This document shows, one piece after another, positions 14,968 through 28,496 of a DNA stretch of 42,488 nt; positions within the stretch are counted from its first letter, which is position 1, and each line of letters opens with the position of its first letter. This stretch comes from a virus (taxonomy: Duplodnaviria > Heunggongvirae > Uroviricota > Caudoviricetes), in IMG/VR virus record IMGVR_UViG_2874945390_000011, one strand, 5' to 3'. The notes under the pieces were generated by a model. The model saw only the letters and a list, made by a program, of their open reading frames with translations. It did not search any database and was not told the origin of the DNA. The position numbers were made by a program, and so were the translations under genes.

Positions 14968-15390
14968 CTAGTCAATCTTGCCGCAGTCAAGCACCCACGG
15001 CATCGTATTACCGGTTTTAGCGTTGGCGTTATCCGGTTGTTTCTGGAACGCAACACTGCGTGCCGTGATGATGTCGCCGCTGACCTTGTTTCGGATCACA
15101 ATAACGTTATTCCCCCATGTGGCAGAAGACTGGCTCTGTGCGTTATACGCCAGCGACAATTTTTTATTTGTCGGTGATGTCTTCAGAAGGTTAACGGTAA
15201 TCGTCCCGCTTTTATCTGCATGGAGACTGTGCATCACTTCGCCATCAGCACCGATGGTCATGGTGTTTTTAGGACCGCCCATCGCAACCACAATCCCCTC
15301 TTCAGAACTTGCCGAACCGTACCCGAGGTCAATCGAACCGGTCGGCCCGGTCAGCGTCGCAGTGACATCCATAAAAGAATAGGTAGACAT
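14968..15390 (-). CDS. tail tube protein
   Basis: 140-aa ORF between sheath and chaperone genes; positional assignment. Confidence 0.55.
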   Translation of the reverse strand: MSTYSFMDVTATLTGPTGSIDLGYGSASSEEGIVVAMGGPKNTMTIGADGEVMHSLHADKSGTITVNLLKTSPTNKKLSLAYNAQSQSSATWGNNVIVIRNKVSGDIITARSVAFQKQPDNANAKTGNTMPWVLDCGKID

Positions 15391-18650: not shown

Positions 18651-19592
18651 TTAAATGCCATCAACGTACGAAATGGTTTCTTTGTACACTGGCTCGACTG
18701 CACCCAGCTTGCCGTAGTAAGTGACGATCTGATACAGACCGCGATACTGCACCGGCACGCTCTGAAGCGGAACCAGCGGGTAGCGGACGTATTTTTTATC
18801 GTTGGTGTACGCAACCATGCGATCCTTATTCCCCACACCACGGCCTTTCAGCCATTTAACCGCGCGGATATTCAGCGGAACACCGTTCTGGTGATAGCTG
18901 ATGGTGTTGGTCTGAAGGTACGTCAACAGGGACTGGTTACCTGCAGATGAAACGATGATGCTGGACAACAGAGCAAACTGCTCAGGCGGGATCAGCAAAT
19001 CACGCGGAACCACAGAGTAACCAGAAGCGGCCCACGCATCAGACAGCACCTGGTTAATGCTTGCGCGGATTTCGTCCGGTGTTGAGGTTGCCCACGTTTT
19101 GGCAGCGTTGTTGACAGGCACGCCGTCCAGGGTAACAAGGCCTTTCAGGTTTAATGCGGAATCGCCAACATATACCTGTTCATCGTTATCCATCTGCCAT
19201 TTCAGTTGCATACCGTCATACTTCTGCGTATCAATCGGGCGGCCGACCTACTGAGCAGCCTGCAATTCTATGACCGTCCAGCCAAGTTCCATCCCCCACA
19301 GGTTCAGCGGATTACCGGATTTGCCGATATCCACGTTCACGCCAGCAATAGCGGTTGAGTCTTTGCCTACCCAGTTTTTTCCATTCGGATTTGCGCCAGT
19401 ACCCGCAGCGGCGAAGCTGGTATTCGTCCAGCTGGAAATGTCATCTGCGATGGAGACGTCTTCACGCAGTTGAATATCGCGGCTCCAGGTGTACCCCACC
19501 AGTGGCAGGTTCAGCGTCTGGTCGAGTCGCTCCAGCTCCCCGATGAGAAAGGCACCAGAGCTGTCAACGGTTGCCTGATCAAAAGTAATCAT
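18651..19592 (-). pseudogene. major capsid protein interrupted by an in-frame amber codon
   Basis: ORFs 19248..19592 and 18651..19211 are in the same frame, separated only by TAG at 19248..19250; read-through gives one continuous protein of about 314 aa in the capsid position. Confidence 0.6.
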
Positions 19593-22121: not shown

Positions 22122-23439
22122 TCTCGATGTCCTCGTCGGTAATGGATGCCCCGATGCCGGTTACGTCAGAATTTTCTCGCAAATCAGTCATAGCGGCTTT
22201 CAGTGTCATCAGACCATCACCCAGCGCCGTACTGATTGCGTTGGTGGTGTTTAACGCCACCGTTGAGCGATCGACATCAGACATTTGCCAGAGCGGGTTA
22301 AACTCAAACGTGAAATCGTCCGGCAGCGGCTTGCCAAGTTCCGAACGATGCATGATGTCCAGTATCCGCCGCACAGGAAGACGTAAACGCCTCTCCTGCA
22401 ACGAACTGATGCGATCGTAATAGTTGGCAAGGTCTGCATCACCGGTAGAAAATCCTTTCGGGGACTGTCCGAACAACCGCACCAGTGGGATACCAACAGC
22501 GCCACTAATCTGTTCTGCAAACTGCGAAAGGATGTCATCCAGACCACTGAAGCTGTACTGATGGGTTTCAAACTTATCCCGCGAGTCCATGAGCGTCATG
22601 CCTTCATTACTCTGGAACTGTCGAATCAGGTCGATATTCTTCAGCAACGCTTCATACGCAGGACCACCAAGTGCGATAAGCTCGCGTAGCTTCTCCACGC
22701 TGTAGGTACGCAAATGCGCCTTGTAGACCAGCTGCGCCGCGCCGACAGTAGCGCTGTCGAACGCGGTAAGACGATCCCAGATACGCTCTACAACCGACAT
22801 TCCCCATTCGTTCTCGGTCATCTTCTGCTGAAATGGCAACGTGACGCCATCAAAGCGAATCAGGCGACTGTGATGAATGCGCCAGGCAGGAATTCCCGTT
22901 GCTGTGGTCACCACATCGTAAAACTCAGGTTTACCCAGGTCCGGCCCCATATCTTTAATGCGGCGGGTCAGTGCCGGGTCGACCATCCAGCGGTCGAGCG
23001 GGAGAATCCCCTTAAACTTGCCCTTACCGATGGTTTCGGGTCGCAGCGGGGTCATTGGTGCCTGCCCCTCAATCATGATGAAACCCACCGCGCCGCCGTA
23101 GAGGCGCGACCATTTCAGCACGTCATTCAGCGCATCCCAGATTTGCAACTCATCCAGTTGTGATTCGAGAATGCCACGATCTTTTGCATCAATTTCCGAA
23201 GTGATGCGAATGCCTTTGCGGGTCATATCATCCGGGATAGCATCGACTGCTTCGCCGATGATCCAGGATGAACGATAGGACCATTCCACCAGCATGCGGT
23301 TACGACTGGTGAAATTAGCCCGGTAGGTGGATGCTGAGTGCTGGTTAGGTGTCTGCATCCCTACGCGGGCAATAAAATTCTCATAACCATCAGCTGTGGC
23401 CTGCACAGTTCGCCGCAGGGCTTGTTTGTTTCGTGCCAT
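21973..23439 (-). CDS. portal protein
   Basis: 488-aa ORF directly after the terminase large subunit with acidic C-terminal tail; positional and compositional assignment. Confidence 0.7.
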   Translation of the reverse strand: MARNKQALRRTVQATADGYENFIARVGMQTPNQHSASTYRANFTSRNRMLVEWSYRSSWIIGEAVDAIPDDMTRKGIRITSEIDAKDRGILESQLDELQIWDALNDVLKWSRLYGGAVGFIMIEGQAPMTPLRPETIGKGKFKGILPLDRWMVDPALTRRIKDMGPDLGKPEFYDVVTTATGIPAWRIHHSRLIRFDGVTLPFQQKMTENEWGMSVVERIWDRLTAFDSATVGAAQLVYKAHLRTYSVEKLRELIALGGPAYEALLKNIDLIRQFQSNEGMTLMDSRDKFETHQYSFSGLDDILSQFAEQISGAVGIPLVRLFGQSPKGFSTGDADLANYYDRISSLQERRLRLPVRRILDIMHRSELGKPLPDDFTFEFNPLWQMSDVDRSTVALNTTNAISTALGDGLMTLKAAMTDLRENSDVTGIGASITDEDIENAEDEAPPGIGEPDDEPQEPSGGNPVSNQPTQDSEGGRRHRKWSLRWFK

Positions 23440-24943
23440 CAGGCCTGTCTCCCCAACTGTTCCCAGATATCCAGCGATGTATCGATTGGCGCGAAGGCCA
23501 TAATGAATGCATCAGCAACGTTTGGTGACGGTATCTCGCGTTTTGCGAGGTCTTTTTTACTTTCGACCATCACACGTCCGTTACGGTCGAAATCACGATG
23601 AGGTGTTGTCAGTTCCAGTTTCAGCTTTTCAAGCAACGGACAACGAGAATCTATGCTGATCAGCTCATCCACAGGATACTGTTCTCCGTTGTTAATGGCG
23701 TTAAACGTATTTCTGAAACGGTCAGCCACCATGCCTGAGCCTTAAGATTTGCGAAAAAGTCTTTGTTGGGGATGCCGTTGTACTCGTCATCTGGCTCATG
23801 CACACCAGCACCGGCGTTAAACCTCTGGTAATTCACACGTCGCGCGTATGCGTTCTCGCTCTTCCGGTCAGCGTTAATTTCAGAGAATTTAGCACCGGCA
23901 GACGCACCAACACCGATAGAGTCGTAAACAATATCTGCTTCACGCTCCAGCGCCGCCTGATAAGTACGCTGGCAGCTCTTCAGTAATTCATCTTCTTTGG
24001 CCTTCCATTCGTCGGCCCAGAAAACAACGGATCCGTGACGGTAAACGTTAGCGCACTTATCTGTACCACTGTCAGCCACGTCAAAGCCAATACGCTTTCT
24101 TCCACTGGGTTCGAAATTTAACGTTTTGTGCGCATCCACTGCGGCTTCTATCCAAGACAGTTTGATGATTGTCGCATCATCATCAGACTCCGGAACGCCC
24201 TCATACACATGTTTAAAACCATCCGGATCACGGCGTCGCGCCGCGTCGATAACCTTAAGCATGGTGTCAGACAGAAACGGATTTTCGTCATAGTTAATTT
24301 TGCGGATGAGAGTGCCTTCGGGCGGATCAACAACGAAGTTGCGCCAGACGAAATCAGTAACAAGTCCGGGGTTGAATATGAACCAGCATTCCGAACCCTC
24401 TTTACGGATCGTTGGCTCCAGAATTTTCCACTGGTATTCCGTCAGTGCGTGGGCTTCTTCCAGCCACAACACATCGATCCCCTCCAGTGACTTAATTTCT
24501 TCGATGTTGCGCCATAATCCATAAAAAACAAATTCCGAGCCAGTAACCCGGTTAATGATTTTGTTGTTCAGAATACGGAAACGGTGCCGCAGACCAAACC
24601 TGTCTATCTGAATTTTGAGCAGGGTATACACCGACTCTTCGATTTTATTCTGGATCTGACGGGCACAACAAAAACGCAGGGTGTATTTATTCGACAGAAA
24701 TATGGCAATGCCAGCGGCATCCCATGATTTTGACGATGACCGACCACCATAAAGCACTTTGTTACGTGCCCGCATAGTCCAGAAACTACGTAAAGCCGGA
24801 TTCAGCGTCGGTTTGGATGTCAGAGTAGAAGTCATTGAGGTCACGCTCTCCATTGCCATCATCAATACCTGCATCACGGCGAAGACGATCAGCCTCCAGA
24901 GACACCTTATCAGTGGCGGCCTTGCGGTAGGCTGTATCAGCAA
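23439..24943 (-). pseudogene. terminase large subunit, split by a frameshift
   Basis: ORFs 23660..24943 and 23439..23732 overlap in frames offset by 1; the junction AQAWW / VADRFRNTF reads like one continuous terminase of about 495 aa. The listed start is TTG; true start probably internal. Confidence 0.7.
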
Positions 24944-25532
24944 ATATTTTTCCTACCGTCGCAAGCGTGCCAACGATGGACTCAATACGAACTGTATTGC
25001 GCATCATTGCTTTCTCGGCGGCGCTGATATTTTCAATCAGCATCTTCCTTTCCTGGTCCCCATTAGCATCTTCCAGCGACACCAACCACCGACCAATATT
25101 CTCTGCAGCGACAAGGTTGTTAGCACGAAGGCGAAATAATTCGTCCTCGAGCGTCAACGCTTTAGCGTCCTCTATCACCTCATCTTTGAGCAGAAGGCGA
25201 CGGGCATAACCACCGTGTTTTAATGCCTGCTGGTTACCGGGTTGGAATGGGTTAGTCGGGGGATCGGTACGCATTCCGCGTATCGGTTTCGTATCCGGTG
25301 TAGATTCTGTTTTTAGTTGCGTACTTTTTTGTGTAAGGCCAGTAATGGCAGGCTTTCTGCTGGTACGCACTTTCCTTTTTTGCGTACCATTGCCACTGCG
25401 TGCCCAACCAAGCTTTTTGGCCCTCTTCCTGATAGCCCCTTCTGTAACGCCGTATTTCTCGCCTATATCACGGAGGCTAAGGACTCCGGCCCGGTATGCC
25501 GATTAGATGGCCTCCCAGTCCGGTTTTGCCAT
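24786..25532 (-). pseudogene. terminase small subunit with premature stop at codon 10
   Basis: ATG at 25532 gives MAKPDWEAI then TAA (25503..25505); the same frame continues SAYRAGVLSLRDIGEKYGVTEGAIRKRAKK (HTH) into the 24786..25370 ORF with GNxxALKHG motif. No ATG, GTG or TTG between the TAA and the HTH. Confidence 0.6.
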
Positions 25533-25726: not shown

Positions 25727-26239
25727 TTGATGGAGTGGATAAATGCTTTGATGAACTATTTTGTACTTCATCCATATCGCCTATGGGGGCTTCTTTTTAT
25801 AATAGCGTTCACAAAATCCACTTTACTCATTTCGGCAATATTGCCACCAGCATCAATTATGATGGCCACTGTAATTACAGTCAGCAAGACGACTCTTTCA
25901 CCATGGGAAGCTGGAATCACGGTCATGAGTGGCGCATGGTGCGGTACTATCGTTAATTACCATCTTGGTATAATAATTGGGCATATCCCTCAACTTGCAT
26001 GTATAATATCGAGCCGTTCCAATACAATAGAACGGGTTCGCCTTCAGTTGCAAAATAACTCTGTGTCAATACTTTTCACTTCGCGCTTTATCGCCGTGCT
26101 GCGTTATATTGCTCCTTTGGTGGCAGGAATGTTGCAACTTCATCCAGTGAAAGTGTATACAGTGAGTCTGATTTCAGCTGCTAGCTGGTCAGCACTTTAT
26201 GTTGGTAGTTTTAGCTTCGTGTTGCCTTTTTTTAGCTAA
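25727..26239 (+). CDS. DedA/YqaA-like membrane protein (moron between lysis genes and terminase)
   Basis: 170-aa ORF with four or more predicted transmembrane segments; on the strand opposite to the late genes; AT-rich upstream region. Confidence 0.45.
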
Positions 26240-26809
26240 ACTGCCCATAAAAAGCTCTTGCGAATCCAGCTTCCCCCATTCCTCTGACAACAGAATCTGA
26301 TTTGAAGGATAATGAGTAAAATTACCGCTACCCCCAAGGCATTGGATCCAGATGTACTCCTGAAGCATTCTCAATGCTGTCTGGTCGCTGATGATTCCGT
26401 CCCGGATACCGAGAACGTTTCGTCCAGCAACTGGAGAGAGTTCGACGGTGGCATCATTGCCCATGCCGGAGGCGCTGGAGGTTTCGGCTGAGGATGGCAC
26501 AGGGCATTTTCCTTTGACGAGCACCCGACCACCATTATCAAGCTTGCGCCGAAGAGCATCATTTTCAGCTTTCGCATCAGCTAACTCCTTCGTGTATTTA
26601 GCATCGAGTGCATCAGCATCACGCTGGCGCTGCTGCATGTCAGTAATGGTTGCGTTCGCCAGCTTCAGTTCTCTTGCGTTTTTGTCGCGCTGCTCTTTGT
26701 AGGTAATGGCGTTATCACGGTAATGATTAACAGCCCATGACAGGCGGACGATGATGCAGATAACCAGAGCGGAGATAATCGCGGTGACTCTGCTCATTGC
26801 TGCCCCCAC
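26189..26809 (-). CDS. i-spanin Rz
   Basis: N-terminal 110 aa closely parallel recalled lambda Rz ([17 protein letters not shown]...[11 protein letters not shown]...[19 protein letters not shown]); about 50 codons longer than lambda Rz at the C-terminus. Confidence 0.75.
26371..26577 (-). CDS. o-spanin Rz1 lipoprotein
   Basis: Embedded in the +1 frame of Rz; lipobox-like VVGC then Pro-rich [11 protein letters not shown], as in lambda Rz1. Confidence 0.7.
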
Positions 26810-28185: not shown

Positions 28186-28260
<75 letters not shown>

Positions 28261-28263
28261 ATA

Positions 28264-28339
<76 letters not shown>

Positions 28340-28341
28340 GC

Positions 28342-28418
28342 TGGCCCACCACCGAGGACTCGAACCTCGCACCGTCAACTTAGAAGGTTGATGCTCTATC
28401 CGGATGAGCTAGTGGTGG
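28342..28418 (-). tRNA. tRNA-Arg (anticodon UCU)
   Basis: CCACCACUAGCUCAUCCGGAUAGAGCAUCAACCUUCUAAGUUGACGGUGCGAGGUUCGAGUCCUCGGUGGUGGGCCA; 7-bp acceptor stem, anticodon stem UCAAC/GUUGA, loop CUUCUAA. Only 1 nt from the next tRNA, so the 5' boundary is uncertain. Confidence 0.65.
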
Positions 28419-28419
28419 T

Positions 28420-28496
28420 TGGTGGCCCTTGCTGGACTTGAACCAGCGACCTGGCGATTATGAGTCGCTCGCTCTGACCAACTGAGCTAAAGGGCC
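28420..28496 (-). tRNA. tRNA with anticodon CAU (Ile2-like, ileX/ileZ type; Met not excluded)
   Basis: GGCCCUUUAGCUCAGUUGGUCAGAGCGAGCGACUCAUAAUCGCCAGGUCGCUGGUUCAAGUCCAGCAAGGGCCACCA; closely resembles recalled E. coli ileX; anticodon loop CUCAUAA. Confidence 0.7.

Follow-up and report, generated by a model that had tools for sequence, protein, structure and literature searches.

The window, that is, the whole 42,488-nucleotide stretch of DNA analysed here, carries on its minus strand the gene for a phage small terminase (TerS), followed by those for the large terminase (TerL) and the portal protein. The reading frame of TerS is interrupted by a stop codon close to its beginning, and it also bears a short in-frame deletion. 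The locus comprises the following features:

24786..25532, minus strand: TerS pseudogene; the whole ancestral frame, by translation from ATG 25532 to the stop codon at 24786..24788
25530..25532, minus strand: ATG at which TerS natively starts, preceded by AGGAA at a distance of 8-9 nt; the same start is shared by homologues
25503..25505, minus strand: premature ochre stop at codon 10 (Glu10, GAA to TAA), with G changed to T at 25505
25410..25517, minus strand: intact coding segment for the predicted N-terminal three-helix (HTH-type) domain, codons 6-41, mostly past the stop
25386..25397, minus strand: site where 18 bp (GGTACGCAGGTTTGCAAA) have been deleted in frame from the GTQ linker of TerS; the repeat makes the exact placing ambiguous
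25368..25370, minus strand: GTG, the first canonical in-frame start past the stop, giving a 194-aa product without the HTH

Read on the minus strand from ATG 25532, the gene gives MAKPDWEAI, then TAA, then SAYRAGVLSLRDIGEKYGVTEGAIRKRAKK (also given as SAYRAGVLSLRDIGEKYGVTEGAIRKRAKKLGW) as far as the stop at 24786..24788. The preliminary description of this DNA, made from the letters alone, had reported an in-frame TAA at codon 10 ahead of an otherwise intact HTH, and translation bears this out. It had also stated that no canonical restart precedes the HTH, so that a full-length protein would need suppression. A codon-by-codon scan agrees with this statement, as it found no ATG, GTG or TTG in frame between 25502 and 25371. 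The only near-cognates in that gap are ATA 25466 and ATC 25433, both of which lie within the putative HTH. Further downstream, GTG 25370 opens a 194-aa ORF (24786..25370), with an AAGGA motif just 2-3 nt upstream, which is a poor spacing. ATG 25274, which would yield a 162-aa product, shows no detectable SD pairing. In terms of the predicted structure, the stop interrupts the first helix of the DNA-binding domain, and GTG 25370 lies in the disordered linker. Past the stop, TerS differs from that of its E. coli relative (described below) by the 18-bp in-frame linker deletion and one synonymous substitution.

The gene had been called a small terminase in the preliminary description, and this identity is upheld by a PHROG match and by the overlap with the large terminase gene. 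Residues 1-252 of WP_001118113.1, the intact orthologue from E. coli FDAARGOS_944 that is annotated as 'hypothetical protein', align to PHROG 370 ('terminase small subunit') with E=7.5e-95, and the 194-aa remnant still matches profile positions 71-276 (E=5.2e-74). At their N-termini, several TerS PHROGs (1206, 51, 2606) also match residues 1-70. With the end of TerS at 24786 and the ATG of TerL at 24835, the two genes overlap by 50 nt. TerL itself matches PF04466 (Terminase_3/PBSX-type, E=3e-38), and the portal gene comes next (PF06381, Phage_portal_3, E=3e-106). In Klebsiella phage GZ7, the orthologue is annotated as terminase small subunit (UVD31909.1).

A Pfam scan of both the intact and the truncated TerS returned no Terminase_2/4/5 or similar TerS family, and the HTH matches stayed below threshold (Sigma70_r4, 16.3 bits; HTH_AsnC-type, 16.2 bits). 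In the AlphaFold2 model of an intact homologue (P0001), helices span residues 6-15, 20-27 and 31-41 (pLDDT 81-90), then comes a disordered linker of ~60 residues, after which residues 107-199 form a long helical hairpin (pLDDT 76-91); the overall confidence of the model is moderate (pLDDT 63, pTM 0.40). The model thus predicts an N-terminal HTH-type DNA-binding domain in TerS. A Foldseek search of this model against the PDB gave no match at E<=0.001, only generic coiled coils that were non-significant, and phmmer against PDB sequences yielded nothing relevant, only weak Cif matches. Because the PDB searches gave no significant relative, it is the PHROG profile and synteny that carry the TerS assignment, and on these two grounds we take the gene to be an HTH-type small terminase.

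Between the HTH and the helical core, the linker of TerS is a repetitive GTQ-x-x-K tract made from GGTACGCA-type repeats. It is through this linker that homologues vary in length, in steps of 249, 254, 258, 262 and 266 aa (range 249-267). Such a pattern suggests that slippage drives length polymorphism here, in a region predicted to be disordered.

Phage small terminases with an N-terminal HTH are well known, lambda gpNu1 and Sf6 gp1 being examples. The gene studied here resembles HTH-type phage TerS such as that of Klebsiella phage GZ7 in its full-length match to PHROG 370, in its position upstream of and overlapping a Terminase_3/PBSX TerL with the portal after it, and in its predicted layout of N-terminal three-helix domain, flexible linker and long helical hairpin. 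Unlike them, it is cut at codon 10, and its DNA-binding domain cannot be made. Its family also stands apart in that it reaches no Pfam TerS family at threshold and has no sequence or fold relative found in the PDB.

Alignment with homologues, which the preliminary description had named as the way to the ancestral codon, gives Glu, encoded by GAA or GAG. A search of 5.8 billion proteins returned 2217 TerS homologues, of which the best 120 were compared. Glu10 is present in 120 out of 120, and all of these proteins start with M-[AS]-x-P-D-W-E and are 249-267 aa long. Thus, none of the best 120 of the 2217 starts naturally downstream of the stop position, which would have been an innocent reason for the interrupted frame. 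At the DNA level, GAA and identical flanks were found in E. coli FDAARGOS_944, E. coli CE0021a and Klebsiella phage GZ7. Among 116 IMG/VR viral contigs chosen by their exact 32 flanking bases, codon 10 is GAA in 109 and GAG in 7, and a stop in none. Similarly, a 71-base query over the site had a 100% match in 0 of the 197 matching complete E. coli genomes, the best match having one mismatch. By these alignments, the ancestral codon is Glu, and the lesion is Glu10 GAA to TAA, a G-to-T transversion on the coding strand.

Assemblies carrying the same allele were found by exact-sequence look-up of the truncated products of the locus. In the finished genome CP026836.1, which belongs to Shigella boydii (PMC12817139), 5176 bp are 100% identical to the window, TAA included. 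The Logan assemblies ERR200294 and ERR2287283 also have the TAA, and each of them differs from the window by one base elsewhere. These three independent assemblies share not only the TAA but also the 18-bp deletion and a deletion in TerL. The possibility of a sequencing error at the stop codon, raised in the preliminary description, fails on this recurrence. An exact-pattern scan for the TAA allele returned zero in GTDB species representatives and zero in JGI metagenome contigs. The allele is real but private to one lineage; the scan results mean that it is rare, and there is no conflict between the two.

Related lineages carry the same prophage with other lesions. In SRR31555785 (701..1464), the GAA is kept, and a -1 deletion in the A-run just upstream of GTG 25370 frameshifts TerS independently. 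GCA_001253215.1 has GAA and an intact TerL, and its portal is called in three pieces (58, 54 and 360 aa; 3081..4547); runs of N interrupt the start of its TerS. Different lineages are thus eroding the same prophage at different places. Because the lesions differ between related lineages, decay fits better than a specific adaptive allele.

The closest relative used for comparison is the prophage of E. coli FDAARGOS_944, whose TerS is intact. The window is collinear with it over ~31.6 kb at 99.4-99.5% identity (24.8 kb at 99.5%); 1.8 kb more match with 92% identity, and the final 0.8 kb with 100%. Each annotated gene of the FDAARGOS_944 prophage was mapped onto the window, and in this way the following lesions were called besides those in TerS:

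23439..24835, minus strand: TerL pseudogene (PBSX family/Terminase_3), frameshift at codon 372
19248..19250, minus strand: nonsense mutation in the major capsid gene (DUF2184), Gln115 CAG to TAG, which splits the ORF into 19248..19592 and 18651..19211
19745, minus strand: +1 A insertion in the Gp24-like head cement gene, frameshift at codon 122
14968..14970, minus strand: nonsense mutation in the tail tube gene (DUF3277), Gln141 CAG to TAG, last 6 residues lost
36193 and 36187, minus strand: -4 and -1 deletions, which frameshift cro (36048..36270)
32061, minus strand: 2-bp deletion in the hokD toxin gene (31969..32122)
26331, minus strand: -1 deletion at the last codon of Rz (26328..26797), ORF lengthened to 206 aa
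29489..30752, plus strand: IS3-family insertion of 1264 bp, which splits a DUF1364 gene; located by the break in the blastn match, transposase NF033516 E=5.6e-100
37504..38645: IS630-family insertion of 1142 bp, seen as a break in the match to the E. coli relative
40396..41659: second IS3-family insertion of 1264 bp, in the opposite orientation to the first; the recE/gam region is absent alongside

The lesion in TerL is a 7-bp deletion at ~23723 that removed one copy of a GTGGCTG direct repeat. Two ORFs are left, 23660..24835 (391 aa) and 23439..23732 (called as 77 aa; 97 aa from the first ATG), and the 391-aa product recurs among the gene calls of CP026836.1, ERR200294 and ERR2287283. The two 1264-bp IS3-family elements have a size that fits IS600. 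As a separate observation, the cI-like repressor (36347..36754) is intact while cro is frameshifted.

A comparison of the window with the relative over 28 late genes counted 24 synonymous, 26 non-synonymous and 3 nonsense substitutions. A random substitution in these genes has a chance of ~3.7% of producing a stop codon, which sets the expectation for the 53 at ~2, against 3 seen. The nonsense count matches neutral decay, with no excess over chance. The pN/pS ratio of the window against the E. coli relative in the late genes is 0.37, not 1, and this value indicates that part of the divergence accrued under purifying selection, either before the inactivation or on the other branch.

Several further genes of the prophage and its surroundings are relevant here:

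1..477: ybhB, at the left edge of the window
1057..2820, plus strand: ipaH, full-length, for an IpaH-family T3SS effector/E3 ubiquitin ligase of 587 aa (NF046045 IpaH_Shig, E=5e-170)
25727..26239, plus strand: gene for a DedA/VTT-domain membrane protein of 170 aa (PF09335, E=9e-14)
28186..28496, minus strand: four prophage tRNAs, namely Gly-TCC, Thr-TGT, Arg-TCT and one with a CAT anticodon
32350..33015, minus strand: intact gene for the epoxyqueuosine reductase QueH

The element adjoins ybhB and is a lambdoid, myovirus-tailed prophage. Its ipaH gene identifies the host as Shigella or EIEC. This gene lies at the tail-fibre end and is intact while the phage genes decay. Flanked by the lysis cassette and TerS and running on the other strand, the DedA/VTT gene looks like a moron; it is conserved in the E. 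coli relative (WP_011069285.1). In the annotation of that relative, the tRNA with the CAT anticodon is given as Ile. It may be added that a tRNA cluster and a tRNA-modification gene, QueH, occur in one prophage.

The TAA is very probably a fixed loss-of-function point mutation in the TerS gene of a decaying prophage of the Shigella boydii lineage, that is, a product of ordinary decay. As the sequence shows, only nine residues can be translated from the native ATG before the stop. No protein with the DNA-binding domain that recognises pac or cos would then be made, and the packaging site would go unrecognised. At best, an HTH-less fragment of 194 aa might be produced from the poorly placed GTG 25370. 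Because of the 2-3 nt spacing of its AAGGA motif and the lack of SD pairing at ATG 25274, a truncated product is unlikely to be abundant. Moreover, the ~740 nt left untranslated would probably lower the expression of the overlapping TerL through lost translational coupling and, possibly, polarity.

Judged from its sequence, the prophage as a whole is a non-inducible remnant under neutral decay, with around ten genes inactivated independently. We base this on the roughly ten independent lesions, which include nonsense mutations, frameshifts, IS insertions and an IS-associated deletion. Suppression of the TerS stop is neither expected nor enough to restore function, since lesions have also disabled TerL, the capsid gene and others.

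Three ways in which a ribosome could get past the stop were considered and rejected. Translational bypass (hopping) from ATC 25508 to ATC 25433 would cost the protein its HTH, and the sequence around the stop does not differ from that of sense-codon alleles. As for +1/-1 frameshifting around the stop, both other frames run into stops, within 12 and 7 codons. A prophage-borne suppressor tRNA was sought among the four prophage tRNAs and none was found.

Cryptic prophages of E. coli and Shigella, including chromosomal remnants that bear ipaH, are known to gather nonsense mutations, frameshifts and IS insertions. The prophage in the window is like them in the spread of lesions over several modules, in its IS3- and IS630-family insertions and in the ipaH gene kept at its edge by ybhB. 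It differs from the classic remnants in being less eroded, since ~37 kb are still collinear with an almost intact relative. Its decay is well advanced, but it can still be recognised for what it was.

An explanation other than neutral decay is that the knockout of TerS was positively selected as it immobilised the ipaH prophage, so that the mutation records domestication and is not a neutral passenger. It could draw on the intact state of ipaH beside broken packaging genes, and on the fact that at least two independent TerS-inactivating lesions occur in related lineages. However, the lesions extend across regulatory, lysis, head and tail genes and their numbers fit the neutral expectation. Besides, any single one of them would suffice, which means that selection on the TerS stop in particular cannot be shown. 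We consider this explanation improbable.

It is also improbable, in our view, that an HTH-less TerS, either the 194-aa product from GTG 25370 or the 162-aa product from ATG 25274, is expressed and functional. Such a protein might act on the terminase of a related phage, superinfecting or helper, by oligomerising with it or poisoning it, or it might relax packaging specificity. The 194-aa ORF does keep the helical-hairpin core predicted by the model of the intact homologue, together with the C-terminal region; it also retains its match to PHROG 370 positions 71-276, is annotated by gene callers in several assemblies and has gathered just one synonymous change. The last point carries little weight, as few substitutions are expected anyway at 99.5% identity. 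Against a functional fragment stand the poor spacing at GTG 25370, the undetectable SD pairing at ATG 25274 and the inactivation of the prophage's own TerL and capsid genes. In SRR31555785, TerS is killed by a different lesion, the -1 in the A-run, which is more like decay than a selected truncation.

A further reading holds that the head/packaging module (TerS, TerL, cement and capsid) was knocked out preferentially, with the contractile tail, the baseplate and lysis essentially intact, and that the TerS stop, which would reduce the protein to a 194-aa oligomerisation fragment without the HTH, was a selected step in the domestication of the prophage to a producer of headless, tailocin-like particles or to a fixed effector island. 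By our own count, there are 4 lesions in ~9 kb of head/packaging genes vs 1 mild lesion in ~12 kb of tail genes, numbers that are too few for significance. We regard this scenario as improbable.

Far less credible still is functional recoding, in which readthrough, suppression or bypass of the UAA would yield some full-length TerS, as in a conditional ochre mutant or in programmed readthrough. What speaks for it is the condition of the frame past the stop, where the HTH is intact and, apart from the 18-bp linker deletion, one synonymous change is the only difference. Yet a stop at codon 10 occurs in no homologue examined, so nothing has evolved around the TAA, and flanks that are the same as in the GAA alleles imply that there is no dedicated signal. 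Readthrough of the UAA is unlikely; in termination-context studies, UAA followed by U is among the strongest terminators in E. coli. The four prophage tRNAs include no suppressor, and with TerL, the capsid gene and others independently broken, readthrough would rescue nothing.

The comparison with conditional mutants can be made more exact. The classical amber and ochre mutants of phage terminases are laboratory nonsense alleles that grow only on suppressor hosts. The TerS allele in the window is like the ochre ones in that an early single-base change creates a nonsense codon and a full-length product would need a suppressor tRNA. Unlike them, it occurs naturally, as a fixed allele of a bacterial lineage, it is accompanied by many other lesions, and no suppressor is found among the prophage tRNAs.

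Finally, a sequencing or assembly error that hides a true GAA codon and an intact gene, although it would account for a single-base difference from a 99.5%-identical relative, has next to no chance of being right, as the finished genome CP026836.1 and two read-set assemblies share the TAA together with the 18-bp deletion and the 7-bp TerL deletion, and position 25505 lies outside any homopolymer.

Ordinary decay being the preferred reading, the locus is an unremarkable nonsense pseudogene in a Shigella prophage that carries ipaH and is decaying, and nothing about it departs from known biology. It should be annotated as a TerS pseudogene (Glu10 to ochre) and not, as gene callers do, as a 'hypothetical protein' of 194 or 162 aa. 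The private TAA, the 18-bp deletion and the 7-bp deletion in TerL could serve as lineage markers. Beyond annotation, the finding matters little. What the lesions do mark is that the ipaH prophage is non-inducible in this S. boydii lineage, which bears on the mobilisation of the effector by its own phage.
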